The notes under the pieces: generated by a model | Told to the model about the DNA's origin: nothing | The model's database searches: none | The model's input: only the letters and a program-made list of their open reading frames with translations | Shown: piece by piece, positions 1 through 21,344 of the stretch | Numbering within the stretch: position 1 is the first letter of the stretch | Layout: each line of letters begins with the position of its first letter | Made by a program: the position numbers and the translations under genes | Assembly: GCA_014630515.1 (NCBI GenBank) | Contig: GCA_014630515.1_4091.1 | Strand: one strand, 5' to 3' | Length of the DNA stretch: 21,344 nucleotides | DNA from: a phage

Positions 1-136
1 ATCTACCCTGATAGTTTGTTCCCAATGTAATCAAAAGGTATAACTCCATTCGTTCTACGTGTGTGTCTGTATTATAAATCTTTGTGAAGTTTTTACGTAA
101 CAGTGATTGATATTCTTCTTTATTTAAAATACGCAT
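1..136 (-). CDS. hypothetical small protein, partial (3' part beyond left edge); paralog of 139..335
   Basis: ATG at 134-136 (alternative ATG 140-142 overlaps TGA of upstream gene as ATGA); N-terminus MRILNKEEYQSLL mirrors MRILTKEQHH of 139..335; both genes begin ATGCGTATTTTAA. Confidence 0.5.
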   Translation of the reverse strand, partial: MRILNKEEYQSLLRKNFTKIYNTDTHVERMELYLLITLGTNYQGR

Positions 137-138
137 TT

Positions 139-335
139 TCATAGTTTACTCGTTATATCTTCAATTAAATACCAAATCCAATCGTTGACATACCTTTCCT
201 GAAAGTTAGTTCCAATGAATAGTGCCATAATTAATTCACGCTTATAGGCAATACCACGGTCATGGGACTTATACATTATCATAGCCATGTTATTGATAAG
301 TCTTTCGTGGTGCTGTTCTTTAGTTAAAATACGCA
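139..335 (-). CDS. hypothetical small protein (65 aa), MRIL family
   Basis: ATG 333-335 with AAGGGAG SD 5 nt upstream; track start 366 lies at the transcription start; stop TGA 139-141. Confidence 0.65.
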
Positions 336-366
336 TAGGGACTCCCTTAAAATTATTATCGATCAT

Positions 367-394
367 ATTTTATACGATTCATATAAAAAGTCAA
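367..394 (-). promoter_or_regulatory. sigma70-type promoter for 139..335
   Basis: minus strand TTGACT, 16-bp spacer, TAAAAT. Confidence 0.45.
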
Positions 395-585
395 TAACAT
401 TTTATTCGTAATACCCCTTTATCGAAGTCGCTAAGGTTACCCGCCCTTTAGCCCCCTACGCATTTTGCCATAGTCCAATCCCTTTTATTTCAAAAAAGTC
501 AAGGGATTACCTATGCATTTTTTTAACGCATAATTTTAAAAACGCCTTGACTTTTTTCTGAATCAGTACTAAATCCTTTTACGCA

Positions 586-795
586 TTAATCCTTCGTTAC
601 GCTTACGATTATCTGTGTATCCCCATAGTCCTGCCATACTTCCACGCCAGCCGTCGCCCTGGTTAGTCGTGCTGTCATCTGCTTAATGGTCTTAGGCTTT
701 AGTGGAACCTGTTGCAGTACTGTACGCATAGCATCACTGACATTATCATGTACGCCAGCAATCGTACCTAGAACGCTGTATACTGTATAGAACAT
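586..795 (-). CDS. hypothetical protein (69 aa)
   Basis: ATG 793-795; AGGAGGG SD 8 nt upstream; no promoter between it and 864..1265, so probably co-transcribed. Confidence 0.7.
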   Translation of the reverse strand: MFYTVYSVLGTIAGVHDNVSDAMRTVLQQVPLKPKTIKQMTARLTRATAGVEVWQDYGDTQIIVSVTKD

Positions 796-819
796 ATGTA
801 TGCCCTCCTGATATAGTTA

Positions 820-839
820 AGGCCGCTAGAGAGCGGCCT
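820..839 (-). other. intergenic RNA stem-loop (8-bp stem, loop CTCT)
   Basis: perfect inverted repeat AGGCCGCT/AGCGGCCT between stop of 864..1265 and SD of 586..795; poor U tract, so attenuator or stability element rather than strong terminator. Confidence 0.45.
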
Positions 840-863
840 ATGATGTTTGGTGATGTGTAATGC

Positions 864-1265
864 TTATAGTCCTAAGATAGTGCGTGCTTCGTTACGTTCC
901 GTCCATAGCTGCATGATGTGAGCAAGTAAGTCCTTACTAATGTATCCGGTGTTCATAGCTTCACGGATAGATACATCATAAGCACCGAACCCCGTGCGAA
1001 CGATACGCACATCATTTAGGTTAGTGTTATAGATACCGCCAAGATCAACGGCTTCGAATACTGCATCAACTGAATACTCATTGTTACCATCGTTGAAGTT
1101 TTCTAGTGCAATAGTATTGGATACCGCCCAACGTTTGCAGTTTCCAATGATGCGGCATTGTTCCGGTTGGAGAGTACCATTACTTACAGCGTACTCCAGT
1201 GCATCTTTACCAAAAGTCCGAGCCAGTACTAAAACGTCAGCGAAGGAAGTGATTGAGAAGGTCAT
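864..1265 (-). CDS. hypothetical protein (133 aa)
   Basis: ATG 1263-1265; AAGGAG SD 7 nt upstream; track start 1298 lies inside the 5' stem-loop. Confidence 0.7.
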   Translation of the reverse strand: MTFSITSFADVLVLARTFGKDALEYAVSNGTLQPEQCRIIGNCKRWAVSNTIALENFNDGNNEYSVDAVFEAVDLGGIYNTNLNDVRIVRTGFGAYDVSIREAMNTGYISKDLLAHIMQLWTERNEARTILGL

Positions 1266-1319
1266 GATAAAACTCCTTAATTTAGGAGGGAGAACCATTT
1301 CCCCCTCTCTATGTAAAAC

Positions 1320-1347
1320 ATTATACTTGATTCTAAGTACAATGCAA
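1320..1347 (-). promoter_or_regulatory. early sigma70-type promoter with 5' stem-loop cassette
   Basis: minus strand TTGCAT, 16 bp, TATAAT; GC stem-loop ~1283-1308 then SD. Confidence 0.6.
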
Positions 1348-1354
1348 GTACTTT

Positions 1355-1681
1355 TTACATTTTAATTCCTGGATTCAGGTAACGATGTGATCCGTATTCT
1401 GGATCGGTTTCGGTCCAGTACTGTAAATCGATAGTACCTTTAGCGTTAATCTTGTCTACCAGCTTATTCATCTTACTGTAGACTACTTCGCTAGGGATGT
1501 AGTGTAATCCTTTATTATAGAAGTAGTGGTTAGCTTCACTATCGTTTAAGATATAGCGTGCACCGTTTGCGGTTTGTGCAACAATGAAAGAGTATTCTAC
1601 TTCCCGATCATTACCATCAACAGTAATGCGGTCGAAATTGGTACGGATGAAAGCTTTAACGATAGCGATTGAAGTACTCAT
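1355..1681 (-). CDS. hypothetical protein (108 aa)
   Basis: ATG 1679-1681; AGGAG SD 8 nt upstream; stop abuts -35 of next promoter. Confidence 0.7.
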   Translation of the reverse strand: MSTSIAIVKAFIRTNFDRITVDGNDREVEYSFIVAQTANGARYILNDSEANHYFYNKGLHYIPSEVVYSKMNKLVDKINAKGTIDLQYWTETDPEYGSHRYLNPGIKM

Positions 1682-1734
1682 GGTGAATCTCCTAACTTTG
1701 TGGGCCGTCGCACCATTGCCGCCCTACGAGATAC

Positions 1735-1763
1735 ATTATTGCAGTACTGATATACTTTGTCAA
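1735..1763 (-). promoter_or_regulatory. early sigma70-type promoter
   Basis: minus strand TTGACA, 17 bp, AATAAT (weaker -10); GC stem-loop in leader. Confidence 0.5.
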
Positions 1764-1781
1764 TACTTTTTCTATTAAAAT

Positions 1782-1997
1782 TTATTTACAGAACTGTAGC
1801 CCGACTGTGTTCGGATAGTACACACATCTTTCACGCTTACCGCTAAACGCAGATATCCAGGATAATTTGTATGCCACTGGTTCCGGTGCAAGAGGATTAT
1901 TTGAATAATCGAGAACTTTAACAATTAAACGGTCCCCAACATACCAGCCAGTTGACTCTTTGATACGGTCGATAATTTCTTGTTTGGTTAACGCCAT
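1782..1997 (-). CDS. hypothetical protein (71 aa)
   Basis: ATG 1995-1997 (MALTKQ); track start is a GTG at 2030 inside the leader stem-loop; SD weak. Confidence 0.55.
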   Translation of the reverse strand: MALTKQEIIDRIKESTGWYVGDRLIVKVLDYSNNPLAPEPVAYKLSWISAFSGKRERCVYYPNTVGLQFCK

Positions 1998-2052
1998 TTT
2001 ATATCTCGCTCTTTTGGAGGTGGGCTGCACTATTGCCGCCCTACGAGATACA

Positions 2053-2080
2053 TTATCTCAGTACTGATATACTTTGTCAA
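2053..2080 (-). promoter_or_regulatory. early sigma70-type promoter
   Basis: minus strand TTGACA, 16 bp, GATAAT. Confidence 0.55.
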
Positions 2081-2155
2081 TACTTTTTTGAAATAGTTTT
2101 GAGTACTGGCATTACATCCACCAGCAGATAGTTACTCACCGTTATTAACTATCTT

Positions 2156-2243
2156 ATAGATACTTCTCTGCACCCTGTGGGCTAGTTTTTGTCTATGCGT
2201 ATATAATAGCAAAGGGACTGACCGGAGTCAATCCCTTTTTTTT
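2156..2243 (-). repeat. repeat element A: conserved leader motif, embedded promoter, GC hairpin with T-run
   Basis: core GCACCCTGTGGGCT; TATATAATAGCAAAGGGACTGACCGGAGTCAATCCC hairpin followed by T8 on plus strand; minus-strand TTGACT, 17 bp, TATTAT overlaps the hairpin; near-identical copies at ~4075, ~7076, ~11806. Confidence 0.6.
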
Positions 2244-2254
2244 ATTCTTTTTTG

Positions 2255-2455
2255 TTAGATGATTCTCCAATCTTCTACCAGGATTTTAATATACCGTACC
2301 AGTGATTCGAGTGATTCCACTTCCCGATAATCGGTAGCCGTTTGCACTGTACAAGTACAGCCGATCAAGCCATTGCCAAGCTCTTTGATCTGTACATCGA
2401 TGCAGTTGGCTTTTGCTTCATTCAGTACTGCAACCAATTCGTTAGCGATTGACAT
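2255..2455 (-). CDS. hypothetical protein (66 aa)
   Basis: ATG 2453-2455; AGGAG SD 9 nt upstream; stop TAA 2255-2257. Confidence 0.7.
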   Translation of the reverse strand: MSIANELVAVLNEAKANCIDVQIKELGNGLIGCTCTVQTATDYREVESLESLVRYIKILVEDWRII

Positions 2456-2508
2456 AATGTTTTACTCCTAAAGGTGCGGGAGAACTATTCCCCCGCTCTA
2501 TGTAAAAC

Positions 2509-2536
2509 ATTATACATTATCTTGTAGTACTGTCAA
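2509..2536 (-). promoter_or_regulatory. early sigma70-type promoter with 5' stem-loop
   Basis: minus strand TTGACA, 16 bp, TATAAT; leader hairpin GCGGG..CCCGC. Confidence 0.6.
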
Positions 2537-2543
2537 ATAGTTT

Positions 2544-2801
2544 TTATGAAATATCTTCGATATAGTCGGCCCATGTCATTTGTTCAGTACTATCGAGTGC
2601 ACCAGGATTATTTGGATCAAACCATTCGCCATCCCCTAAGTACATTGCAGCCGCTACCGCTTTATAGCCATTATAGGCGTTATTCCACTGCATAGCACGA
2701 TAGATACGGCCTTTGATTGGTGTCTGTACTGGTAATGTTTTATGGTCTTCTACGTAGGCCATAGCTTGAGGATTTACCCGATATTGTGTGAACTGTTCCA
2801 T
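2544..2801 (-). CDS. hypothetical protein (85 aa)
   Basis: ATG 2799-2801 with GGGGA SD; track start 2858 lies inside the promoter. Confidence 0.65.
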   Translation of the reverse strand: MEQFTQYRVNPQAMAYVEDHKTLPVQTPIKGRIYRAMQWNNAYNGYKAVAAAMYLGDGEWFDPNNPGALDSTEQMTWADYIEDIS

Positions 2802-2826
2802 TATGTTTCCCCTTGTAGTTAGTAAA

Positions 2827-2858
2827 GTTATTACATCAGTACTATCACGCATTGTCAA
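2827..2858 (-). promoter_or_regulatory. early sigma70-type promoter
   Basis: minus strand TTGACA with TGTAAT/TAATAA -10 candidates 17-20 bp downstream. Confidence 0.45.
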
Positions 2859-2876
2859 TAGTACTGAAATAAAACT

Positions 2877-3101
2877 TTAGATTAGATTATTGATGCCGTT
2901 GATGGTAGACTCGCTTTCTTCTTTCTCCCATTGGCGGTAATACTTCCATGCTTCATGATAGGTGGCGATCAGTTCATCTTTTTGATCCTGAGTACATGCC
3001 AGTACTGAATCACTGTAAGCGGTGTTATAGATAGAATCAAATGATTTCTTCTCTTCTGCCAGGGTAGCTACTTCCCGCATCAGTTCATCAAAGTTAGCCA
3101 T
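2877..3101 (-). CDS. hypothetical protein (74 aa)
   Basis: ATG 3099-3101; AAGGAG SD 8 nt upstream. Confidence 0.7.
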   Translation of the reverse strand: MANFDELMREVATLAEEKKSFDSIYNTAYSDSVLACTQDQKDELIATYHEAWKYYRQWEKEESESTINGINNLI

Positions 3102-3149
3102 TTTAGTACTCCTTATTAGTGGGGGAGGATATCTCCCCCTATGTAAAAC

Positions 3150-3177
3150 ATTATACTTTGTTTTACTTACAATGCAA
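3150..3177 (-). promoter_or_regulatory. early sigma70-type promoter with 5' stem-loop
   Basis: minus strand TTGCAT, 16 bp, TATAAT; leader hairpin GGGGGAG-gatat-CTCCCCC. Confidence 0.6.
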
Positions 3178-3184
3178 GTACTTT

Positions 3185-3376
3185 TTAAATTTTATTTCCG
3201 ATATAGTCCGGCCTGTTCTTTTCGGTCATACGCTTAAGCATTTTTTGCATATGGCTTATTGCTTGTAGTGTATCCTCTTCCAGCGATGAATCAAGATAAT
3301 CAGGATCATTCTTCACCTTACAATGATTATGATAGCGTAGTACTGCCAGTACTTTTTTAACTTCTTCTACTGTCAT
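3185..3376 (-). CDS. hypothetical protein (63 aa)
   Basis: ATG 3374-3376 overlaps TGA of 3373..3645 (ATGA), consistent with translational coupling. Confidence 0.6.
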   Translation of the reverse strand: MTVEEVKKVLAVLRYHNHCKVKNDPDYLDSSLEEDTLQAISHMQKMLKRMTEKNRPDYIGNKI

Positions 3377-3645
3377 AATAAGTATTCCACTTCGTTTGCT
3401 TTCAGGTTAGTATCAATCATCAGTGGTTTTTTGTAGTCCACAAAACGATTAGTTTTCTCGATAGCGAAGCCCATATAATCCAGTTTGCTTACAGTACATT
3501 CATTCTTAAAAACTTCTTTCGCTGCATTGATGGCTGATTCAATTGATAACCGCCCATCTAAATTAATGTTACCAAATGATCCACCAGCAGAAGTAGGATT
3601 ACCGTTCATATCTTTAATAATCATAGTAGCGGAGTAGCTGGACAT
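3373..3645 (-). CDS. hypothetical protein (90 aa)
   Basis: ATG 3643-3645; AAGGA SD. Confidence 0.7.
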   Translation of the reverse strand: MSSYSATMIIKDMNGNPTSAGGSFGNINLDGRLSIESAINAAKEVFKNECTVSKLDYMGFAIEKTNRFVDYKKPLMIDTNLKANEVEYLL

Positions 3646-3698
3646 AATTTTGTTTCCTTTTATTGGTGGGGAGAGCTATTCTCCCCTTGATGTAAACT

Positions 3699-3726
3699 AT
3701 TATACAGTACTGATATACTTTGTCAA
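3699..3726 (-). promoter_or_regulatory. early sigma70-type promoter with 5' stem-loop
   Basis: minus strand TTGACA, 16 bp, TATAAT; leader hairpin GGGGAGA-gctat-TCTCCCC. Confidence 0.6.
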
Positions 3727-3729
3727 TAC

Positions 3730-3951
3730 TTAATTACGTTTAAAATGATATGTACCTTTATCATCCTGTACGCCCCATACTGATTTACCATCAACGCCAG
3801 TGATGCCGGATTGCAATTCAATATGGAAACCATTATTATCAACTACAAAAACTTTTTTATTTTCATCCCGATAACATTGATATTCTGAATCAACATTAAA
3901 GGCCGCATCATTCAGAAGATTGGAAGCGTAAATGCAAGTCATTGTAGTCAT
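3730..3951 (-). CDS. hypothetical protein (73 aa)
   Basis: ATG 3949-3951; AAGGA SD 8 nt upstream. Confidence 0.7.
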   Translation of the reverse strand: MTTMTCIYASNLLNDAAFNVDSEYQCYRDENKKVFVVDNNGFHIELQSGITGVDGKSVWGVQDDKGTYHFKRN

Positions 3952-4002
3952 GATTTTATTCCTTATTACCAGGGAGAACCATTTCCCCTCTCGATATAAA
4001 AC

Positions 4003-4030
4003 ATTATACTTGATTCTAAGTACAATGCAA
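4003..4030 (-). promoter_or_regulatory. early sigma70-type promoter
   Basis: minus strand TTGCAT, 16 bp, TATAAT. Confidence 0.6.
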
Positions 4031-4074
4031 GTACTTTTTTAAAATAGTTTTCAGTACTGAATACTTATATAATA

Positions 4075-4166
4075 GATACACTTCCGCACCCTATGGGTCA
4101 GTGAGTTATCTCTCAATGGATATATAATAGCAAAGGGACTGACCGGAGTCAATCCCTTTTTTAATC
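4075..4166 (-). repeat. repeat element B: conserved leader motif, embedded promoter, GC hairpin with T-run
   Basis: core GCACCCTATGGGTCAGTGAG; hairpin AAAGGGACTGACCGGAGTCAATCCC plus T6; minus-strand TTGACT, 17 bp, TATTAT (4124-4152). Confidence 0.6.
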
Positions 4167-4170
4167 TTTT

Positions 4171-4755
4171 TTATCGTGTTACCTTACTTGCTGCCACATC
4201 ACGCTTTTTATAGTACTGATTCCAGATATTGCTGGTTAAACCGTAATCAAGTACTTTAATAAGTCCATTACGATCCTGGCCGATATTCTGTTTTCTGATA
4301 TCTCTTATCGTTAGTGTTGATAATGTATCATCGACGTGTTGTAGTGCATCAGCAAAGCGGTGCTGGCGTTCAATGGCATTACGTTTAATATTGTACTTTA
4401 ATTCGTTGCACGCGTTAACGTGCTTCACACTGCCTTTGCTTGCAGTACTCAACCGATCCATAACGATAAACATATTATCAGGATCGCATAAATGCATATG
4501 CACCTTTGCAAAGTACTGTTTCAACTGAGGGCGGTCATAGTCTAAAAAATTCCATACCTTACATTCAGTTTCATTTTGTTCTACACCCGCATCACAATTC
4601 GCGACCTTAATCACTAACCGATCATTTAAAGCGAATACTATACGGGAAGAACCAGCACCGATGATCTCCAGGCCAGCTAACCGACAAGCTGAAAGGATCT
4701 CTTTGTTGGTTTCCATTTCTGACAGTGTACGGATGAATTTAGTATAATTACGCAT
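4171..4755 (-). CDS. protein-kinase-like protein (194 aa)
   Basis: ATG 4753-4755; AAGGAG SD 8 nt upstream; translation has glycine-rich IGAGSSR, lysine in VIKV, catalytic-loop-like IRDIRKQN and DFG-like VLDYG in the expected order. Confidence 0.6.
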   Translation of the reverse strand: MRNYTKFIRTLSEMETNKEILSACRLAGLEIIGAGSSRIVFALNDRLVIKVANCDAGVEQNETECKVWNFLDYDRPQLKQYFAKVHMHLCDPDNMFIVMDRLSTASKGSVKHVNACNELKYNIKRNAIERQHRFADALQHVDDTLSTLTIRDIRKQNIGQDRNGLIKVLDYGLTSNIWNQYYKKRDVAASKVTR

Positions 4756-4786
4756 TGCATGTTCTCCTTGAGTTAATGAAACTATA

Positions 4787-5029
4787 TTACAGTACTTTAC
4801 TATCAATGGCAACTACTTTTTTAACATTAACGGCGTGGATCACTTCCTTAGTGTTTTTAGTACTGAATACTTTCGCCGCTCCTTGTTCGACCGTGATGCG
4901 ATAGCGACCATTAACATCAACCATATTAATAAAGTCCGGCGTGCTGAATGGTGTTGTTTTACATTTCAGTACTGTTAACAGTTCCACCAGCGATGTAGTT
5001 TCTTTGATACGTTTTTCTAAAGTAATCAT
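4787..5029 (-). CDS. hypothetical protein (80 aa)
   Basis: ATG 5027-5029; GGGGGA SD; 31-nt gap to 4171..4755 without promoter, so co-transcribed; track start lies in leader. Confidence 0.65.
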   Translation of the reverse strand: MITLEKRIKETTSLVELLTVLKCKTTPFSTPDFINMVDVNGRYRITVEQGAAKVFSTKNTKEVIHAVNVKKVVAIDSKVL

Positions 5030-5057
5030 TTTGTTTCCCCCGTGTTGGTATATGTAC

Positions 5058-5086
5058 ATAGTACTAAAACATTTGAGTACTGTCAA
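5058..5086 (-). promoter_or_regulatory. sigma70-type promoter (TACTAT subtype)
   Basis: minus strand TTGACA, 17 bp, TACTAT; upstream stop codon abuts the -35. Confidence 0.5.
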
Positions 5087-5305
5087 TTAGATAATATTAT
5101 ATTTCTTAAAATAAAATGCGTCCTGTGTTGGTTGATACTCAATGCCATTGCCGTTATTGACTTCAACTAATAAACCTTTGTCAATAAGTTTTTTAATAGT
5201 ACGATACCCTTGTTGAAAATTGGTAAAATGTGAATCATTACGAAAGGTATAACCGTGCTTAACTGCTTCATCAATAGTTTTCTTTTCGATTTTAGATAAT
5301 TTCAT
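5087..5305 (-). CDS. hypothetical protein (72 aa)
   Basis: ATG 5303-5305; same promoter and leader as 4787..5029, which produces the identical artefactual N-termini in the track. Confidence 0.65.
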   Translation of the reverse strand: MKLSKIEKKTIDEAVKHGYTFRNDSHFTNFQQGYRTIKKLIDKGLLVEVNNGNGIEYQPTQDAFYFKKYNII

Positions 5306-5333
5306 TTTGTTTCTCCCGTGTTGGTATATGTAC

Positions 5334-5362
5334 ATAGTACTAAAACATTTGAGTACTGTCAA
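5334..5362 (-). promoter_or_regulatory. sigma70-type promoter (TACTAT subtype)
   Basis: minus strand TTGACA, 17 bp, TACTAT; duplicate of 5058-5086. Confidence 0.5.
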
Positions 5363-7031: not shown

Positions 7032-7075
7032 GTACTTTTTAAAAATAGTTTTCAGTACTAGCCACCAGCTAACAA

Positions 7076-7160
7076 TAGATACATTTATGCACCCGGTGGG
7101 CTGATTTGTTTCTATGCGTATATAATAGCAAAGGGACTGACCGGAGTCAATCCCTTTTTC
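7076..7160 (-). repeat. repeat element C: conserved leader motif, embedded promoter, GC hairpin with T-run
   Basis: core GCACCCGGTGGGCT; hairpin AAAGGGACTGACCGGAGTCAATCCC plus T5; minus-strand TTGACT, 17 bp, TATTAT (7122-7150). Confidence 0.6.
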
Positions 7161-7168
7161 AATTATTT

Positions 7169-9166: not shown

Positions 9167-9464
9167 TATTTTAACCTCATTATAAAAATACTATAGTACT
9201 GTAACGCGACAAGTATATTACTTGTTCTTACTTTTTCCAATCCATACGACACGACATATTCATCCCCATATGTGCGGATCACCACACCATGAAAATTTTT
9301 ATACACTTCCACTACTAATCATAACCTTTCGTCTAACCAACTGCATAGAATTATACTACTTTACGCAAATTGATCAAGTATTGATCAGATCATTTTTTGA
9401 TCAATATTAGACAGCTACATTTGTGCACCCTATGGGTTAGTGACGTTCTCGTCTTGATGTAAGT

Positions 9465-9493
9465 ATTATGCCAGTACTGGCATAATTTGTCAA
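9465..9493 (-). promoter_or_regulatory. sigma70-type promoter followed by conserved leader motif (element E)
   Basis: minus strand TTGACA, 17 bp, CATAAT; leader 9421-9460 carries the GCACCCTATGGGTTAGTGAC core; the nearest downstream gene is ~290 nt away. Confidence 0.5.
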
Positions 9494-10266: not shown

Positions 10267-10295
10267 ATTATGCCAGTACTATCAAACGTTGTCAA
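10267..10295 (-). promoter_or_regulatory. sigma70-type promoter (CATAAT subtype)
   Basis: minus strand TTGACA, 17 bp, CATAAT; same cassette as 14065-14093 and 14361-14389. Confidence 0.55.
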
Positions 10296-10314
10296 TAGTA
10301 CTGTGATAATATTT

Positions 10315-11772: not shown

Positions 11773-11805
11773 TGTAGTACTCCTTATTAGATTGATATAT
11801 TTTAT

Positions 11806-11892
11806 TTACACTTCCGCACCCGGTGGGCTAGTGAGCTATCTCTCAATGAATATATAATAGCAAAATGGCTGACCGAAGTCAACCACTTTTTT
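11806..11892 (-). repeat. repeat element D: conserved leader motif, embedded promoter, variant hairpin
   Basis: core GCACCCGGTGGGCTAGTGAG; hairpin TGGCTGACCGAAGTCAACCA with compensatory changes relative to A-C; T6 on plus strand; minus-strand TTGACT, 17 bp, TATTAT (11854-11882). Confidence 0.6.
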
Positions 11893-12029
11893 CATTTATT
11901 TTTAGCTTTCAGAATCGCCGCCTTTCGCGTCATGCCTTGCTTGATGTACTCCTTTACTTTCGCTTTACGTGCTTTCGCTTTATCTGCTTTCGTTTTAGGA
12001 GTACTGTAAATTAAACCGTTAGGATTCAT
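11892..12029 (-). CDS. lysine-rich small protein (45 aa), not in ORF track
   Basis: ATG 12027-12029 directly follows TAA of 12030..12119 (TAAATG); about one third Lys/Arg; stop TGA 11892-11894. Confidence 0.45.
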   Translation of the reverse strand: MNPNGLIYSTPKTKADKAKARKAKVKEYIKQGMTRKAAILKAKNK

Positions 12030-15633: not shown

Positions 15634-15756
15634 TTTATAAATCCTCAATTAAAGTTTAGTTTACGTTTATTAGTGTATCAAAGTTTTATCGACGTGTCCA
15701 GTTTTTCGTTCGACTTACTGGCGGTCTACTTAGTGCTCCCCGTCTTGATGTAATAC

Positions 15757-15784: not shown

Positions 15785-15832
15785 CTACTTTTTTAAAACT
15801 ATTTTTAAAGTATGCAGTACTACGATAATACA

Positions 15833-15863
15833 AAAACAAAAAAGCCCACTGTATAAGTGGGCT
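15833..15863 (-). terminator. rho-independent terminator (minus strand)
   Basis: minus strand AGCCCAC-ttataca-GTGGGCT followed by TTTTTTGTTTTTG; same module as 15103-15129. Confidence 0.7.
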
Positions 15864-15880
15864 AGTGATTCAGTACTATA

Positions 15881-16180
15881 TTATAAACAATTAATTACGC
15901 CAGTGAATGTAACTTTCTCTGTATCCATTACAGTGACAGAACCGCGTTTACTTTTTGCATCGTAATAGATGGTCGTGCTACCCTGATCATCTTCTTCATG
16001 GTACGGGCCATTAGCAAACATTGCAGGGGCCAGTTCCAGGGATTTGGTAACGATCTCAGCCGTTTCCTCGTTAGTCATTGCAACAGTGCACTGAATGAAT
16101 TTTTCTTTCGGTACATCAACGGAAGCGTTAACAGCGAAAGAGGAAACAGATAAAGCCAGGGCGATGATTGCAGTTTTCAT
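15881..16180 (-). CDS. small secreted or periplasmic protein with N-terminal signal peptide (99 aa)
   Basis: ATG 16178-16180; N-terminus MKTAIIALALSVSSFAVNA has Lys then hydrophobic core then AxA-like site. Confidence 0.7.
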   Translation of the reverse strand: MKTAIIALALSVSSFAVNASVDVPKEKFIQCTVAMTNEETAEIVTKSLELAPAMFANGPYHEEDDQGSTTIYYDAKSKRGSVTVMDTEKVTFTGVINCL

Positions 16181-16230
16181 TTGTATATCCTTTGTTAGTA
16201 CTAGGGAGTATTCCCGATTAGATGTAAAAC

Positions 16231-16258
16231 ATTATACGCATTTAAAAACTATTATCAA
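16231..16258 (-). promoter_or_regulatory. early sigma70-type promoter
   Basis: minus strand TTGATA, 16 bp, TATAAT. Confidence 0.5.
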
Positions 16259-16293
16259 GTACTTTAATATAAAAGTATTTGAAAAAAAAAGTC

Positions 16294-16322
16294 TTGACAA
16301 CTGCATCCAGTACTGGCATAAT
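16294..16322 (+). promoter_or_regulatory. plus-strand sigma70-type promoter
   Basis: plus strand TTGACA, 17 bp, CATAAT; only clear plus-strand promoter inside the gene array. Confidence 0.5.
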
Positions 16323-16328
16323 ACTTAC

Positions 16329-16425
16329 ATAAAGACGAGATAGTCACTAACCCACAGGGTGCATAGATCCGTCTATTAAATGATTCAGTACTGCAAAATA
16401 AAGGGGATCGTTTGATCCCCTCTGT
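16329..16425 (+). ncRNA. candidate small RNA (plus strand) carrying the conserved leader motif
   Basis: starts ~7 nt after the 16294-16322 promoter, contains GAGATAGTCACTAACCCACAGGGTGC, ends at hairpin 16402-16421; no SD-preceded ORF. Confidence 0.3.
16393..16421 (-). terminator. rho-independent terminator (minus strand)
   Basis: minus strand AGGGGATC-aaac-GATCCCCT followed by TTTATTTTG; 5 nt after stop of 16427..16648. Confidence 0.65.
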
Positions 16426-16426
16426 A

Positions 16427-16648
16427 TTACTTAGTAAGATATAAACAAAAATCACCTTTCTTTGCTACGCCGCCAGTGTAACGCGATGAATAGTTAGAAA
16501 CGTCTTGCACTTCTGCAATGACGAGCGTATCATCATTTATTTCGTCGCAAAAACATACTGCGGGATCTTCTACGCCAATATTGTCAGCATGTGCCCGCAT
16601 AGATTTAACCAGTGCTTCAAGCTGGGAAAGAGTAGTGATATTAGCCAT
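16427..16648 (-). CDS. hypothetical protein (73 aa)
   Basis: ATG 16646-16648; AAGGAG SD 8 nt upstream. Confidence 0.7.
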   Translation of the reverse strand: MANITTLSQLEALVKSMRAHADNIGVEDPAVCFCDEINDDTLVIAEVQDVSNYSSRYTGGVAKKGDFCLYLTK

Positions 16649-16699
16649 TGTAAAACTCCTTATTAGTGGGGAGAACCATTTCTCCCCTTGATGTAAACT

Positions 16700-16727
16700 A
16701 TTATACAGTACTGGAAACTAATTGCAA
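16700..16727 (-). promoter_or_regulatory. early sigma70-type promoter with 5' stem-loop
   Basis: minus strand TTGCAA, 16 bp, TATAAT. Confidence 0.6.
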
Positions 16728-16735
16728 GTACTTTT

Positions 16736-16939
16736 TTAATTTAATTGCTTTAAAACATAATCAAAGACACCACGCACATCATTGATCATCGCCTGGCGGT
16801 TAGCAGGTAACGCATCAGGATCGCCACTATCCCAGGCATTAATGAAGCCACCTAAATCATGGAATACTTTATTCCGTAACCCGATCAACTGCAATTCTTT
16901 TTCTTCAAGCTCTTTGATACGTTTAATTAAATCACTCAT
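16736..16939 (-). CDS. hypothetical protein (67 aa)
   Basis: ATG 16937-16939; GAGGA SD overlaps stop of 16957..17241; start region GAGGATTATCTAATGAGT is duplicated at 17241. Confidence 0.6.
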   Translation of the reverse strand: MSDLIKRIKELEEKELQLIGLRNKVFHDLGGFINAWDSGDPDALPANRQAMINDVRGVFDYVLKQLN

Positions 16940-16956
16940 TAGATAATCCTCAGTAC

Positions 16957-17241
16957 TCAATTGTAAGATCCGCAACGGTCGCAGTAGTGCCCGTCCTCGT
17001 CATCTTCTACCACTTGCCCGATGAAATGATCTACTTTCGCTTTCAGGTTATTATAATCGTTTTCTACTTCCTTTAAACGCTTCTGGTAGTATTCCAGTGC
17101 TTTAAGATATGCCGCATCAGTAGTTTTCTCCTGCATAGCTAAATTCATGCCACGCGTTTCATCGTACAGCCAAAAACCATCGGTGCACTCACTTATAGAC
17201 AATGACTTGCTTAACACATTGTACTTTATTACTTTACTCAT
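16957..17241 (-). CDS. hypothetical protein (94 aa)
   Basis: ATG 17239-17241; GAGGA SD; C-terminal CDRCG. Confidence 0.7.
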   Translation of the reverse strand: MSKVIKYNVLSKSLSISECTDGFWLYDETRGMNLAMQEKTTDAAYLKALEYYQKRLKEVENDYNNLKAKVDHFIGQVVEDDEDGHYCDRCGSYN

Positions 17242-17291
17242 TAGATAATCCTCATTAAAGGCGGGAACTATTCCCGCTCTCGATATAAAGT

Positions 17292-17319
17292 ATTATACGT
17301 TAATCTAATTACTTTGCAA
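17292..17319 (-). promoter_or_regulatory. early sigma70-type promoter with 5' stem-loop
   Basis: minus strand TTGCAA, 16 bp, TATAAT. Confidence 0.6.
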
Positions 17320-17326
17320 GTACTTT

Positions 17327-17563
17327 TTAGTGCTTTTTATAAAACATCTCAGCGGTGATATTTTTACCCGTTGGTTGTACTTTATCCAGGATCTTTTGGT
17401 GTGCACTACGCCCGAAAGAATAAGAACCGTAAACCGTTAGCCAGTAGTCGCCATTTTGGTTTACATGTACCGCACAATAAGGAACGCCCCGCGAATCGTC
17501 ACCAATGAAGTGTGATACTGTACCCGTTACGTTTGGCGTTGTAGTTTTGATTTGTTCGATCAT
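17327..17563 (-). CDS. hypothetical protein (78 aa)
   Basis: ATG 17561-17563; AGGAG SD 8 nt upstream; track start lies in leader. Confidence 0.6.
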   Translation of the reverse strand: MIEQIKTTTPNVTGTVSHFIGDDSRGVPYCAVHVNQNGDYWLTVYGSYSFGRSAHQKILDKVQPTGKNITAEMFYKKH

Positions 17564-17621
17564 TTCTCTTACTCCTGGGATATAGGCGGGAACCATTCCC
17601 CGCCATTGATTCAGTACTGAA

Positions 17622-18233
17622 TTAATATTCGATAGATTCTACTACATCGTCGATAACGTTAAATTGATATTCGTTACCCTCAATCAGTCCTACAATGTTT
17701 TCAGTAGTAAACTGGTCTTCATAAGCATTTTCTAAATCACGGTACAGCTTACAAGATAATTCTCGGATAGTATCAGTCAGTAAGTTTTCCAGATCCTCAG
17801 CCAATGCAGCCTGTTTTACAGTTAAATCAGTGTAGCGAGTATCAACGCAACCGCCTACCGTGTTTTCGTGAGCGTAGCGTGATTGGGAACGTTCTACACT
17901 CATTTCCAAATCATCTTCGTTCAATAGGTGACGGATGGAACGATATTTCGTTAACGCCTTAACCTTGCGTAAAAACTTCTCAGCGTCAACGTGGTCAGTA
18001 CTGATTGATGCACCGTCACCTTGCGACCAAAAACCACTGTATTGCAATTCAGCTTCATCTATGCCGTATTCTGGCAGTACTGTTTCTTTATAGTATTCCA
18101 GTACTGATTCAGCAAAGAAATTATCCTCACTTGCACGTTCCCGATCCCGAACCAGTTCGATAGCCGCCGCTTGTTGTTCTGCGTTCAGTTCAGAAAAATC
18201 CATAACGAAAGTAGTAGTAGTGATAGTTTTCAT
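17622..18233 (-). CDS. acidic protein (203 aa)
   Basis: ATG 18231-18233; GAGGG SD; strongly Asp/Glu-rich; largest gene in the window. Confidence 0.7.
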   Translation of the reverse strand: MKTITTTTFVMDFSELNAEQQAAAIELVRDRERASEDNFFAESVLEYYKETVLPEYGIDEAELQYSGFWSQGDGASISTDHVDAEKFLRKVKALTKYRSIRHLLNEDDLEMSVERSQSRYAHENTVGGCVDTRYTDLTVKQAALAEDLENLLTDTIRELSCKLYRDLENAYEDQFTTENIVGLIEGNEYQFNVIDDVVESIEY

Positions 18234-18265
18234 TTTGTAACCCTCATTCAGTAGTTGATGTAAGT

Positions 18266-18293
18266 ATTATACGCTTTTAAAAACAATTGTCAA
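18266..18293 (-). promoter_or_regulatory. early sigma70-type promoter
   Basis: minus strand TTGACA, 16 bp, TATAAT. Confidence 0.6.
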
Positions 18294-18390
18294 ACTATTT
18301 TATCAGGGGAGTTTTTCGTGTGCCTTACTCCTGGGCTACTTAACGGGAAGTTACTTATTTCGTTCCCCGTCCTGATGTAAAACATTATAC
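18288..18390 (-). repeat. 103-bp duplicated block, copy 2
   Basis: identical to 6908-7010; lies between two tandem promoters upstream of 17622..18233. Confidence 0.6.
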
Positions 18391-18411
18391 GCCTTTAAAC
18401 ATAGTTTGCAA
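18384..18411 (-). promoter_or_regulatory. early sigma70-type promoter
   Basis: minus strand TTGCAA, 16 bp, TATAAT. Confidence 0.55.
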
Positions 18412-18444
18412 GTACTTTTTGAAAATAGTTTTTATCTCTTTCAT

Positions 18445-18526
18445 ATAGATACATTCCCGCACCCTATGGGCTATCGCCTTGTGTCCGGCTTGTAAGTATT
18501 ATCTCACTAAGCCGGATAACGGTCAA
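18445..18526 (-). repeat. repeat element G: promoter with conserved leader motif and flanking inverted repeat
   Basis: minus strand TTGACC, 17 bp, GATAAT (18498-18526); inverted repeat CCGGCTT/AAGCCGG brackets the -10; leader has CCCATAGGGTGCGGGAATG. Confidence 0.5.
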
Positions 18527-18532
18527 GTACTT

Positions 18533-18799
18533 TTATTCAAGTACTGCAATCTTTTTAGTACTGTACACAGTAACGCGGTTGCCCTTGCGGTCGTGCTTTA
18601 TTTCTACCACGCGACGCGATACACTATCAGGACGCTTTAAAGCAGATAGCCAGTACTGAATTGATCGGGCTGTACTTTGCTTTACTACGGCCCAACGTTT
18701 ACCACGTTCAGATTGTACGCCCATATCTTTAAACGTTGCCCCGTCCTGGCGTGCTGCAATCCGAGCTAGTTCACGCGTCGCAAAATATGTAATAGTCAT
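18533..18799 (-). CDS. hypothetical protein (88 aa), paralog of 5675..6070
   Basis: ATG 18797-18799; track start is a TTG in the promoter. Confidence 0.6.
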   Translation of the reverse strand: MTITYFATRELARIAARQDGATFKDMGVQSERGKRWAVVKQSTARSIQYWLSALKRPDSVSRRVVEIKHDRKGNRVTVYSTKKIAVLE

Positions 18800-18836
18800 G
18801 CTGTTACCCCTATCGTTGATGTACAAAAAGAACTTT

Positions 18837-18865
18837 ATTATAAAGTACTATCATTTTTTGCGATA
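18837..18865 (-). promoter_or_regulatory. sigma70-type promoter (weak -35)
   Basis: minus strand TATAAT with poor -35; context resembles the 6115-6143 promoter of the paralog. Confidence 0.4.
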
Positions 18866-18884
18866 GTACTTTAAATAAATTCTA

Positions 18885-19124
18885 TTACATTCCAACCATC
18901 GCCGCACGGATCGCAGTAGTGCTATACTTAAAGCCGTCTGGAGTTTTATCTTGTCCAGTCTGTTCTAAAAATAGCATCATATGACGGGCCGCATCATTGC
19001 GATTAGTATTGGCGGCAATAAAGTCCTGGGCCAACCGGTACAATGACTCATCGTTATTAATCCAAAGGCTTACATTCCAATGAGTTTTGTTTTTGTGACC
19101 TAAGAACATTTTTGATTTAGCCAT
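18885..19124 (-). CDS. hypothetical protein (79 aa)
   Basis: ATG 19122-19124; GAGGA SD. Confidence 0.7.
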   Translation of the reverse strand: MAKSKMFLGHKNKTHWNVSLWINNDESLYRLAQDFIAANTNRNDAARHMMLFLEQTGQDKTPDGFKYSTTAIRAAMVGM

Positions 19125-19174
19125 TTTTTAATCCTCTTATATAGTGGGGAACTATTCCCCACCTGATGTAAAAC

Positions 19175-19202
19175 ATTATACGCTTTTAAACTTAGTTTGC
19201 AA
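19175..19202 (-). promoter_or_regulatory. early sigma70-type promoter with 5' stem-loop
   Basis: minus strand TTGCAA, 16 bp, TATAAT; leader hairpin GGGGAA-ctatt-CCCC. Confidence 0.6.
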
Positions 19203-19216
19203 GTACTTTATTAAAC

Positions 19217-19579
19217 TTATTCGTAAATTTTGCCACTGTCAGCCCATACCAGGAAACGAGGCATATTATCCCATGCATCTTGTTTTAAATTTAAACCGTG
19301 TAATACTTCTGTACTTTCCATTCCTGGTACTGGTTTACTATACACCGCGAAATTTTCGCCCATATACTGATAAACCATCGTTAAATCACTGGCGATCATC
19401 TTATGGATCATCGCATCAAGCATCACGGTAGCGGCGTATTGTTCACGCTTAAGCGGCAACATTGTAATAAGTTCCCGATAAGCTGAAATGTGAATTTTTA
19501 CCGTTTCAGCCGGAAGACCTTTCATCTCTTCACGGAAGTTGACCAGGTTAGCAATAATTTTATTGATTTGGGTCGCCAT
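19217..19579 (-). CDS. hypothetical protein (120 aa)
   Basis: ATG 19577-19579; track start 19636 lies in promoter and leader; first gene downstream of the ORF-poor region. Confidence 0.6.
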   Translation of the reverse strand: MATQINKIIANLVNFREEMKGLPAETVKIHISAYRELITMLPLKREQYAATVMLDAMIHKMIASDLTMVYQYMGENFAVYSKPVPGMESTEVLHGLNLKQDAWDNMPRFLVWADSGKIYE

Positions 19580-19635
19580 CGTATTAATCTCTTTTAAAGT
19601 GTAGCGGGAAGTGTTCCCGCTCTCGATGTAAAACA

Positions 19636-19663
19636 TTATACGCCTTTAAACATAGTTTGCAAG
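19636..19663 (-). promoter_or_regulatory. early sigma70-type promoter with 5' stem-loop
   Basis: minus strand TTGCAA, 16 bp, TATAAT. Confidence 0.6.
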
Positions 19664-19898
19664 TACTTTCTACATGTACTTTTAAAATAGTTTTCTTTCT
19701 ATATAGGGGAACTATTATTCAGTACTATCATTCAGTACTGAATCAACCAAATCACTACTACACCCCATAAAACGGCCTCAGACGCATTCTAACGCATTAA
19801 TACACCTAAGCTATACATTTGCACCATTCCAATCATTCCAGGGCTTTACGGGCCGTTTAAACGCGTTAAATTATTTTCAATTATTTTGTTTTTAGGTA

Positions 19899-19926
19899 TT
19901 GACTTGATCCTGAAAAAGCGTATAAT
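19899..19926 (+). promoter_or_regulatory. plus-strand sigma70-type promoter
   Basis: plus strand TTGACT, 16 bp, TATAAT; followed by conserved leader motif GACGCGAGAAAGCGGATACCCCAGGGGGTGGGAAG. Confidence 0.55.
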
Positions 19927-20113
19927 TACTACATAGACGCGAGAAAGCGGATACCCCAGGGGGTGGGAAGATCCGTCCAAAATTCAAGATATAAAAAAAG
20001 GATAGACTCCCGCACCCTAGCAGGTTAACGCACTTTCTCAGTACTGAATTATAGTACCATAGTCCGGCCCAGGATGGCAAGCAAATTAATTAAAACTTTT
20101 TTCATCCAGGGTA

Positions 20114-20141
20114 TTGCTTTATTTTTCCAGTACTGTATAAT
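20114..20141 (+). promoter_or_regulatory. plus-strand sigma70-type promoter
   Basis: plus strand TTGCTT, 16 bp, TATAAT; followed by leader motif GTCGAGAAAGACTCAAGCCCACCGGGTGCATAG. Confidence 0.5.
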
Positions 20142-20239
20142 AGTTCCATCAAGTCGAGAAAGACTCAAGCCCACCGGGTGCATAGTTACGCCCAAAATTC
20201 AGTACTGAAAAAAATTTTTAAAAATATCCGTCCAGGCCG

Positions 20240-20268
20240 TTGACATTGCCCCCAGTTTATAAGATAAT
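20240..20268 (+). promoter_or_regulatory. plus-strand sigma70-type promoter
   Basis: plus strand TTGACA, 17 bp, GATAAT; points into the iteron-like region. Confidence 0.5.
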
Positions 20269-20359
20269 GATTCCAGATTCAGAAAAATCTAACTCCAGAT
20301 ACTGCGGGGAAACTATCCCCACGCGGTAGGGGAACTATTGGAAAAAACAAAATAAAATT

Positions 20360-20480
20360 TTGATTTAGCCGTCTATACTTCCAGACGTGTAACCATCTAG
20401 CCGTTTAGCCGTCCAAACGTCTAGCCATCCAGCCATCCAGAAATCTAGACGTTTAGCCGTCTAGATGGATAGCCATCTTT
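20360..20480. repeat. iteron-like direct-repeat array
   Basis: 7 copies of YAGCCRTY within ~115 bp (TTTAGCCGTC at 20364, 20404, 20452); also CTAGACGT/CTAGATGG and ACTTCCAGAC repeats; preceded by A-rich tract 20341-20360. Confidence 0.5.
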
Positions 20481-20879
20481 ACTTCCAGACTTCTGGAGGG
20501 CTAGACATATCTACGTCCAAAATCCATCCAGGGTAACTACGCCCAAAATCCGTCAGTACTATACCATAGATCTATCTTTTGAAAGGGAGTATTCAGTACT
20601 GCCATCATAGCCCTCACTATGTTACCCTAGGAGGATGAAGACTATCATGTAGTACTGAATACTGTTAGAGGGAATCCACCAGCACAAGCTGGTGGCATAA
20701 TGCTTTAGATTAAAATCAGTACTGACACCATTCTGTTAATATCAGTACTGTTATTACGATTTTCATATGAGGTTCAAAAAGATGTACCACCACAGGAGGA
20801 ACTATCTTTTCTGTACTGTCTCACGACAGGAGGTAGAGTAAATGAATTGTTCGCAGCAACTCATCTCTCTATGTAGAAC

Positions 20880-20907
20880 ATTATACAGTACTGAATCATA
20901 ATGTCAA
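20880..20907 (-). promoter_or_regulatory. minus-strand sigma70-type promoter in ORF-poor region
   Basis: minus strand TTGACA, 16 bp, TATAAT; no ORF over 60 aa downstream. Confidence 0.5.
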
Positions 20908-21242
20908 TAACTTTCTTTCATTATTCAGTACTGATATTCTTGAGAACTACCCGTCTACAAACATCATTATATCCCACAAATCATAAACGTCCCAACGTAA
21001 ATTTCAACTTTCGAAGATCCAACTTTTATTTCATAGGTACTCCAAAATTTTTAGGATCGAGATTTAGGATGGAGTACTAACCAACTTTTTGCTGGAGCCT
21101 CAAGGGGTAATGGAATTTTACCCCGACGGGTAAAAGGGTAATTGTAATTAAGGTGAAAGTAATAATTCAGTACTAATCATTGCGTGATTACTTTTGATTA
21201 CATTTGATGTAATTTGAAAAATGGAAAAGGAGCTTGGAAACT

Positions 21243-21268
21243 AAAAAGTACGGCAGACTTCCTCTGCC
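21243..21268 (-). terminator. possible rho-independent terminator (minus strand)
   Basis: minus strand GGCAG-aggaagt-CTGCC followed by GTACTTTTTAG. Confidence 0.4.
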
Positions 21269-21271
21269 TAC

Positions 21272-21344
21272 TTAGTGACATATCAGTACTGCTACGTTCT
21301 TGATTAAACGTGAACATTCCTGTACTCTAGTACTCACTACTGAT
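21272..21344 (-). CDS. possible 3' end of a minus-strand gene entering from the right edge (partial)
   Basis: open frame from window edge to TAA 21272-21274, followed 4 nt later by the 21243-21268 hairpin; too short to assess. Confidence 0.3.
   Translation of the reverse strand, partial: SVVSTRVQECSRLIKNVAVLICH

Follow-up and report, generated by a model that had tools for sequence, protein, structure and literature searches.

Short palindromes are typically avoided by phages. The subject of this study is one such palindrome, the hexanucleotide AGTACT, in a 21,344-bp stretch of phage DNA (GenBank assembly GCA_014630515.1, contig GCA_014630515.1_4091.1; this whole stretch is hereafter the window), in which it is the top-ranking 6-mer. 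Many copies of one short site, including copies at early promoters clustered in a terminal repeat, are known from dispersed phage operators, such as the 'stoperators' of mycobacteriophage L5, the C1 operators of P1, and the TF1 sites of SPO1 over early promoters in the terminal redundancy; through such sites, one protein can silence a whole temporal class. AGTACT resembles them in its many copies and in its presence at clustered early promoters. These operators, however, number in the tens, lie mostly between genes, are often asymmetric and are bound by a known phage protein, whereas AGTACT is found at ~900 sites per genome, two thirds of them within genes. Chi (GCTGGTGG), the FtsK-orienting polar sequences (KOPS), and the DNA uptake sequences and uptake signal sequences (DUS/USS) are likewise short exact words held dense by selection, each read by a DNA-processing machine. 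They are asymmetric and orientation-dependent, whereas AGTACT is symmetric and marks the phage rather than the host.

The highly iterated palindrome HIP1 (GCGATCGC) of cyanobacteria (PMC4390886) is a short exact palindrome that ranks among the commonest words, lies within genes and in intergenic DNA, shows in codon choice, and is maintained while its function is debated. AGTACT has the same character as an exact palindrome enriched genome-wide, in genes and between them, with 133 copies against 6.5 expected in the window and 903 against 118 in the related jumbo coliphage 121Q. HIP1, however, is a word of cellular genomes, and two orphan methyltransferases have their targets within it, whereas AGTACT belongs to phages, is depleted in the host, has no evident cognate methyltransferase, and sits systematically on promoter cores.

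AGTACT is also the centre of the sites used in nucleoid occlusion of E. coli by SlmA, a 12-bp palindrome (GTGAGTACTCAC) with a strong need for G1, T2, A4, G5 and a purine at position 3 (PMC3020112), which a dimeric TetR-family helix-turn-helix (HTH) protein reads as a chromosome-wide positional mark. In the phage, the equivalent of position 3 prefers C (52%) and avoids G (5%), and no GT preference is seen farther out. SlmA sites were rejected because the phage word shares their core and lacks the flanks that SlmA requires: the SlmA pattern GTRAGYRCTYAC has no exact match in the window and one match with a single mismatch (0.44 expected), and GAGTACTC does not occur there at all. TrpR, whose half-site is GTACTAG and not GTACTGA, was set aside for this difference; a 'TrpR' consensus that includes TTCAGTACTGAA (PMC2811016) is a motif-finder output and is taken as a mis-registered alignment, not as a real operator. 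Hyper-abundant genomic words are known in HIP1, Chi and USS, but a palindrome that marks phages instead of cells, lies on promoter cores and is found again in unrelated phages within one host family is, as far as could be found, undescribed; the genome papers on these phages, as far as they are searchable, make no mention of AGTACT.

Excess and selection of AGTACT

Dinucleotide-preserving shuffles of the window give 6.55 +/- 2.89 copies of AGTACT (maximum 14), and Markov expectations are 6.9 at order 0 and 6.4 at order 1, so that the 133 copies observed represent a ~20-fold excess. The initial annotation, made from the letters alone, had counted about 130 sites, roughly one per 160 bp, with a 20-30-fold excess, and had proposed Markov expectations as a check; the exact figures agree, at one site per 160 bp. 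All other hexamer palindromes are at most ~3-fold enriched. The hexamer is the unit, since GTAC outside AGTACT is at expectation: among 218 GTAC in the window, 133 lie within AGTACT, and the other 85 compare with ~73 expected, which is no enrichment. The core is sharp, with one-mismatch variants at most ~2-2.4-fold enriched, a mild excess of near-cognate words such as the decay of sites would leave. Intergenic DNA carries 11.8 sites per kb and coding DNA 3.5. By context, about 50 sites belong to sigma70-like promoters and 44 to coding sequence, and another 39 lie elsewhere between genes, with 17 of the intergenic sites in the right end (19637-21344), which is poor in open reading frames (ORFs). 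This is the distribution that had been described from the letters, over promoters, coding sequence and the ORF-poor right end. The claim that most sites belong to the 8-mer CAGTACTG did not hold, since that word accounts for 42 of the 133 (32%; 0.27 expected). Three sites cited as coding do lie in coding sequence, at coordinates 3-19 bp away from those first given:

716 to 721, coding site in the minus-strand ORF 586-795 (first given as 704)
1417 to 1422, coding site in ORF 1355-1681, part of CAGTACTG, in a Q-Y-W reading (first given as 1398)
2424 to 2429, coding site in ORF 2255-2455, in the A-V-L frame (first given as 2421)

Duplicated promoter cassettes, codon usage or base composition could in principle have produced the excess, and the initial annotation had stated that its disappearance after correction for repeats and codons would refute the claim of a selected site. 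AGTACT is indeed densest (13.6 per kb) in the 21% of the window that is repeated, and AGT, ACT and GTA are favoured codons in 121Q, AGT making up 33% of the Ser codons. After removal of all stretches with a paralogous copy in the window, however, 73 sites remain in 16.9 kb against 5.4 expected, still a 13.6-fold excess in unique sequence. Coding sequence of the window holds 52 sites against 15.6 +/- 3.1 when synonymous codons are shuffled within each gene (3.3-fold, z = 11.7), and 200 kb of 121Q hold 427 coding sites against 125 +/- 9 (3.4-fold, z = 33), in shuffles that keep the codon usage of each gene. Furthermore, conservation of the sites exceeds that of controls, the word extends over the genome and over the clade, and an rV5-like phage with comparable early promoters is without it. 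An artefact is refuted by these results and keeps next to no probability.

Coding sites use all three reading frames, as Ser-Thr, x-Val-Leu and x-Tyr-x, which was the outcome of the check on codon position suggested at the start. Across the whole 121Q genome, AGT-ACT writes 353 of the 676 Ser-Thr dipeptides (52%), where 102 are expected; NAG-TAC-TNN occurs 131 times against 13.5 expected, and the codon preceding GTA-CTN ends in A in 73% of cases, against 33% overall. A tRNA-Ser with anticodon ACT is annotated in 121Q at 25464-25555 and would read AGT, the codon inflated by AGTACT.

In two relatives at ~94% identity, 107 of 116 (92%) and 113 of 125 (90%) of the window sites are intact, compared with 73-74% of control hexamers (p = 2e-7 and 3e-6). 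By this comparison, AGTACT sites are under purifying selection. Biased repair of the Vsr type was rejected as the drive, because the deamination products AGTATT and AATACT show no depletion, with an observed/expected ratio of 2.1 in the window and 1.2-1.3 in 121Q.

The flanks of the sites are symmetric. C stands at -1 in 69 window sites and G at +6 in 69, at least one of them being present in 96 of 133, while few sites have G at -1 (7) or C at +6 (5), both of which are avoided; GAGTACTC, absent from the window, is found 3 times in 121Q. The one-sided forms are strand-symmetric, with 27 sites of CAGTACT not followed by G and 27 of AGTACTG not preceded by C. In the terminal non-coding DNA at 19637-21344, the symmetrised flanks are +1 G 0.71, +2 A 0.62, +3 A 0.53 and +4 T 0.50, and a weaker form of this rule (+1 G, against C, and at +3 A, not G) is alike in 121Q, RaK2, GAP32 and Munch. 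Perfect copies of the 12-mer TTCAGTACTGAA number 4 in the window against 0.002 expected and 13 in 121Q against 0.04 expected. Among the functions listed in the initial annotation, namely a site for a phage or host protein, a target of modification, or a signal for recombination or packaging, symmetric flanks that reach 12-14 bp in unconstrained DNA favour a dimeric DNA-binding reader. The region and the four 12-mers, none assigned to a strand, are as follows:

19637 to 21344, ORF-poor terminal non-coding region with 17 AGTACT (10 per kb), symmetrised flanks giving a symmetric consensus that reaches ATTCAGTACTGAAT
4050 to 4061, perfect 12-bp palindrome TTCAGTACTGAA
17610 to 17621, perfect 12-bp palindrome TTCAGTACTGAA
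19731 to 19742, perfect 12-bp palindrome TTCAGTACTGAA, with a second AGTACT 7 bp beyond
20198 to 20209, perfect 12-bp palindrome TTCAGTACTGAA

Promoter cores and the spread of the word

By megablast, the window belongs to Asteriusvirus, a genus of jumbo coliphages with 121Q, PBECO4, phAPEC6, G17 and fEgEco12 among its members, and its closest match is BAU.Micro_ELP-22 (92% identity). Its genes, about 50 and small, are on the minus strand. Position 21272 aligns with position 1 of the ELP-22 record and position 21284 with the left edge of the right direct terminal repeat (DTR) of fEgEco12, and published DTR sizes in Asteriusvirus are 20,993, 21,525 and 20,668 bp (PMC13070987, PMC11895373). Based on these edge alignments and sizes, the window is probably in essence one ~21-kb DTR, the early region of host takeover, and its right end would lie near the physical left end of the genome.

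1 to 21344, no strand, whole window with 133 AGTACT, close to an Asteriusvirus DTR (early-gene region) by alignments and published DTR sizes

Promoters were scanned with a simple sigma70-type pattern, TTGACA or TTGCAn, a 15-19-bp spacer, and nATAAT. AGTACT was found between -47 and -7 in 33 of the 36 gene-strand promoters of this type in the window, where, in the manner of an operator, the palindrome overlaps the -35 hexamer, spacer or -10 region in two fixed registers; among control promoter-like matches on both strands, it was found in 0 of 14 in T4 and 2 of 9 in the rV5-like phage A73. In the first register, A-tract-AGTAC-TTGCA, the site covers ~-41 to -36 and its final T also opens the -35 hexamer (17 window sites). 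In the second, AGTACT-G-TATAAT, it covers ~-19 to -14, directly 5' of the -10 hexamer (22-24 window sites). Seven promoter-like matches in the window hold two sites, ~22 bp apart. Examples from the pattern scan are:

1320 to 1359, minus strand, first register: A-tract, AGTAC-TTGCAT, 16-bp spacer, TATAAT, with AGTACT at 1347-1352
3699 to 3726, minus strand, second register: TTGACA, a spacer ending in CAGTACTG, TATAAT, with AGTACT at 3706-3711
10267 to 10302, minus strand, two-site promoter: AGTACTA-TTGACA-N11-AGTACTGG-CATAAT, with sites at 10297-10302 and 10275-10280, 22 bp apart

Gaps from site to site peak at 20-24 bp in the window and in 121Q and are otherwise essentially random (coefficient of variation 0.87-1.18); regular spacing was looked for, and none was found apart from these promoter pairs. 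LexA/SOS boxes, for which two sites 18 bp apart could be mistaken, were rejected, as no 18-bp gap exists among the window site distances and just half-sites are present. A by-product of the sigma70 promoter or UP-element consensus was rejected as well, since 83 of the 133 window sites lie outside promoter contexts.

No 6-mer is commoner than AGTACT over the whole genome of 121Q (34% GC). Its density is 6.5 per kb in the part homologous to the window, a hot zone, and 1-4 per kb in the remainder, and with respect to distance from start codons the density is nearly uniform (2-3 per kb) with a modest peak at -40 to -80. The other genomes were counted as samples:

Klebsiella phage RaK2, AGTACT 119 against 17 expected
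Cronobacter phage GAP32, 181 against 10 expected
Salmonella phage Munch, 145 against 10 expected
Yersinia phage fHe-Yen9-04 (Yen9-04), 215 against 17 expected
T4, 8 against 10 expected
Pseudomonas phage PA5oct, a more distant relative, 2 against 10 expected
rV5-like coliphage A73, 7 against 7.4 expected
E. coli K-12, 50-kb sample, 3 against 11.6 expected (depleted)

The enrichment is shared by relatives in five RaK2-like genera, as the initial annotation had proposed to verify, and its core claim of a selected genome-wide site survives: it stands after the repeat and codon controls, with 92% and 90% of sites conserved against 73-74% of controls, and with 903 copies against 118 in 121Q. A73 has early genes in common with the window at 80-92% nucleotide identity, and often shows variants of 1-2 bases at the AGTACT positions. 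The word is thus present at ~2.6 per kb genome-wide in 121Q and ~6 per kb in the terminal repeat, compared with ~0.06 per kb in the host sample.

The word is also carried by unrelated small phages. IMG/VR was scanned for paired CAGTACTG, and among the matches listed there were, besides the known jumbo phages, contigs of 25-34 kb and ~41% GC with AGTACT as the commonest 6-mer. Two of these hold 140 copies against 9.6 expected and 123 against 7.7, evenly distributed. The AGTACT-rich contigs (~31-34 kb) code for structural genes of lambda-like siphoviruses; megablast gave them no match among cultured phages, and their relatives are prophages in Leclercia sp. 29361 and Escherichia sp. ESNIH1. The terminase of the ESNIH1 prophage is just 41% identical, yet AGTACT occurs there 58 times against 6.8 expected. 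The flank rule of the small phages matches that of the jumbo phages, with +1 G at ~0.6 and C at 0.06, and with A raised and G lowered at +3. By tblastn and phmmer against complete 121Q and partial sequences of the four other genera, the small phages share just a lysozyme and tail-fibre genes (gp508/gp509, E = 0) with 121Q and an HNH endonuclease with Munch; no DNA-binding protein or methyltransferase in common with the jumbo phages was detectable in these searches, and no methyltransferase was seen in the small AGTACT-rich phages. Since the word is common to unrelated phages of one host family and no reader gene is shared, a host factor is a serious candidate; the initial annotation had not foreseen this sharing. 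The common tail fibres indicate common hosts. Tail-fibre genes close to gp508/gp509 of 121Q (E = 0) are found in some of the small carriers, including the ESNIH1 prophage, which by sequence implies tail-fibre exchange between temperate-looking phages and jumbo phages.

One conserved block downstream of the DTR departs from the palindrome. At 161.8-169.4 kb of 121Q (NC_025447.1), AGTACT occurs once and AGTACA 41 times, every AGTACA lying on the coding strand, in three frames and varied contexts; AGTACA is ~14-fold enriched there on the coding strand only, AGTACT is at chance, and the AGTACA excess fades toward 190 kb. The same pattern is seen in fEgEco12 at 28-38 kb (7-17 kb past its DTR) and in Munch at 22.5-30 kb. 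Directly ahead of the block is a 4-kb array of ~70-aa paralogues without AGTACT, and the proteins of the block gave no Pfam hits. Between 121Q and fEgEco12, AGTACA is conserved at 51% against 41% of controls, a weak difference, and AGTACT at 68%. Oriented AGTACA in one conserved block suggests either that a second reader, related to the first, is at work or that a half-site is recognised on a single strand.

Candidate readers of AGTACT

A model is proposed in which AGTACT is a selected, strand-symmetric recognition word in double-stranded DNA for a candidate dimeric protein reader that would both gate promoters and mark the genome. Its chance of being correct is judged to fall slightly short of even; that the reader is a protein dimer, and what its occupancy does, are what we infer from the enrichment, selection, symmetry, promoter overlap and phylogenetic spread. 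The optimum site would be TTCAGTACTGAA, with G at -1 and C at +6 never favoured, and the word would saturate the phage chromosome wherever the sequence is free, that is, in every second Ser-Thr, in many x-Val-Leu and x-Tyr-x, and in nearly all intergenic DNA. Judged from site densities, the reader would be concentrated 40-100-fold on phage over host DNA. Occupancy over the -35 hexamer, or over the spacer/-10 edge, of nearly every early promoter in the terminal repeat would gate early transcription, presumably by occlusion and shut-off, while sites elsewhere would be additive as a genome-wide mark for recruiting, titrating or protecting, each site adding to the benefit drawn from the reader.

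Several points weigh against this model. By Pfam, no HTH or ribbon-helix-helix (RHH) protein was found in the 52 ORFs of the window, and Pfam together with PHROGs gave no DNA-binding fold there. The sharp hexamer core with few near-cognates looks more like the site of a restriction or modification enzyme than a degenerate operator, and the uniform 2-3 sites per kb deep within genes are not explained by promoter control. A host-encoded reader does not explain why T4 and rV5-like coliphages are without the word, and we know of no enterobacterial factor that binds AGTACT, SlmA excepted, nor was one found. The depletion in the host is a figure from one 50-kb E. coli sample and 12 kb of Leclercia flanks. 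The oriented, non-palindromic AGTACA block is predicted neither by a simple symmetric dimer nor by any of the rivals below.

Within the dimeric-reader model, a host and a phage origin of the protein are about equally probable, with a slight lean to the host. That unrelated phages of a single host family carry the identical word and have no reader gene in common speaks for a reader that is host-encoded or common in the host, and the strict confinement of the word to the RaK2-like clade among lytic coliphages speaks for a phage protein. In its strongest host form, AGTACT, with the optimum TTCAGTACTGAA, would be a 'DNA password' of phages, read by a conserved enterobacterial host factor and convergently saturating unrelated genomes to recruit, titrate or evade that factor. 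Such a password would span phages from 350-kb RaK2-like myoviruses to ~32-kb lambda-like phages and prophages, form a mirror image of Chi, and be wired into the early promoters of the jumbo phages, with AGTACA marking one block. Both the password and this wide reach are put forward tentatively, as rather unlikely. Of the same doubtful order is a reader specific to the clade, a RaK2-like phage protein acting as global repressor of early promoters or as a nucleoid protein like TF1 of SPO1. It would account for a trait that tracks the RaK2-like clade over five genera and four to five host genera and is missing from other coliphages, even those that exchange early genes; for sites over early promoter cores in fixed registers; and for a block-by-block use of motifs within one genome, which suggests a link to the phage programme. 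For this explanation, the word on the small phages must have been gained independently, or a homologue must have diverged past detection, as word and flank rule are identical in the unrelated lambda-like phages and prophages, for which tblastn and phmmer against whole 121Q showed no DNA-binding gene in common. The ORFs of the DTR also yielded no DNA-binding domain.

AGTACT as the target of a sequence-specific modifying enzyme, a methyltransferase or other post-replicative modifier, would make it the phage counterpart of HIP1, a hyper-abundant palindrome with precedent in its tie to orphan methyltransferases (PMC4390886). Its density would follow if each modified site added to protection, to strand or self discrimination, or to regulation. 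Both claims are considered improbable. The exact 6-bp palindrome with sharp edges and barely enriched one-mismatch variants is typical of type II specificity, and 121Q and its relatives encode methyltransferases among genes that are mostly unannotated. The identifiable methyltransferases of 121Q, however, are a Dam-type (PF05869) and a C5 enzyme (PF00145), and DNA methylation in RaK2 is reported to be of the Dam and CpG types (PMC3622015), whereas AGTACT contains neither GATC nor CpG; the annotated enzymes were rejected as readers because their types do not fit, a rejection that covers annotated genes. Ten restriction enzymes, a set without ScaI, cut fEgEco12 DNA as predicted, with no global hypermodification (PMC13070987). 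The AGTATT/AATACT counts give no Vsr-like signature, the small AGTACT-rich phages show no methyltransferase, and flank preferences to +/-4 bp in free DNA exceed the site of a hexamer enzyme. A signal on one strand, made palindromic to serve both directions of a DNA-translocating or replication enzyme, such as a Chi-like regulator of a helicase-nuclease or a primase site, is less probable again. The ~30-fold enrichment of strand-biased E. coli Chi in the same DNA suggests that short words are used here to manage host enzymes; AGTACA replaces the palindrome in one co-oriented block by the DTR, as expected of a polar signal; C at -1 and G at +6 are nearly independent (0.52 x 0.52 = 0.27 expected, 0.32 observed); and sites are spread evenly along genes. 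Asymmetry is the rule in known Chi, KOPS and primase sites, however, whereas here the flank logo is symmetric to 12-14 bp and AGTACT itself is a palindrome, only the separate AGTACA block being oriented. The concentration over promoter cores is also left unexplained. The jumbo phages bring a T4-like primase and helicase of their own, lambda-like phages generally rely on host replication functions, and tblastn and phmmer detected no replication gene in common between the jumbo and the small phages. An RNA-level motif, AGUACU, as the target of an endoribonuclease or RNA-binding protein on phage transcripts, is disfavoured and very improbable. Genes are nearly all co-oriented, which places the word in most mRNAs, and the AGTACA block is specific to the sense strand. 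Outside that block, however, the near-cognates in 121Q are symmetric (AGTACV and BGTACT each ~1.8-fold), as are the two one-sided forms at 27 each in the window, many sites lie upstream of transcription starts in promoters, and a palindrome with symmetric flanks is not explained by RNA.

That a palindrome is the top 6-mer of 350-kb genomes, dictates half of the Ser-Thr codon pairs, is conserved over five genera and is found again in unrelated phages of the same hosts implies a strong sequence-reading activity, unrecognised so far, in infected Enterobacteriaceae. Such a reader could reveal how jumbo phages without a nucleus distinguish or organise their DNA, how they switch off ~36 early promoters together, or a new host factor that phages exploit. 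AGTACT also offers a simple genomic signature for spotting such phages in metagenomes, and a caveat for codon optimisation or synthetic recoding of these phages.

Other features of the terminal repeat

Chi occurs 9 times in the window against 0.28 expected (~30-fold), with 8 copies on the gene-sense strand:

2118, 3581, 4984, 7062, 8309, 9772, 15014 and 20676, minus strand, Chi (GCTGGTGG)
20688, plus strand, Chi (GCTGGTGG)

The inverted pair at 20676/20688 is ~650 bp from the terminal end of the window, and with these orientations Chi would face RecBCD that enters at either physical end of a genome bounded by DTRs. Enrichment with a strand bias was likewise found in 121Q (29 Chi against ~2.3), ELP-22, GAP32, Munch and Yen9-04; the samples of A73, PA5oct and T4 contain no Chi.

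Repeated cassettes of ~100 nt lie at ~2150-2250, 4080-4170, 7060-7165, 9400-9470, 11790-11900, 18400-18500 and 19900-20300 of the window. Each is laid out as a G+C-rich hairpin gggattgactccggtcagtccc followed by TTT, with a -35 element TTGACT in the stem and TATTAT after it, and then a conserved box, agcccaYMgggtgc...gtatct. These cassettes may be combined terminator-promoters for short leader or non-coding RNAs; Rfam gave no match at gathering score in the window, the cassettes included. Short direct repeats (ggctaaac, ctagacg, tggatgg, tggacg) cluster at ~20300-20560, in the ORF-poor region near the genome end, and form a candidate terminase-recognition or replication element.

Matches of the window ORFs in Pfam and PHROGs comprise a DksA/TraR zinc finger, a GNAT acetyltransferase, domains of unknown function (DUFs) and a weak protein kinase domain (E = 0.004), and one DTR ORF has a ParE-like toxin domain (PF24732, E = 6e-11). 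Elsewhere in 121Q, gp167 (39267-40232) is a full sigma70-family factor with regions 2, 3 and 4, separate from the gp55-like late sigma. Genes of the Asteriusvirus DTR are common, at 80-92% nucleotide identity, to myoviruses of the Vequintavirinae and Stephanstirmvirinae type. Nine records labelled as Campylobacter phages match the window (for example MG065689.1, 'Campylobacter phage A110a', 146 kb); judged by their size and by the genes matched, these resemble phAPEC8/rV5-like coliphages, and their host labels are probably wrong.

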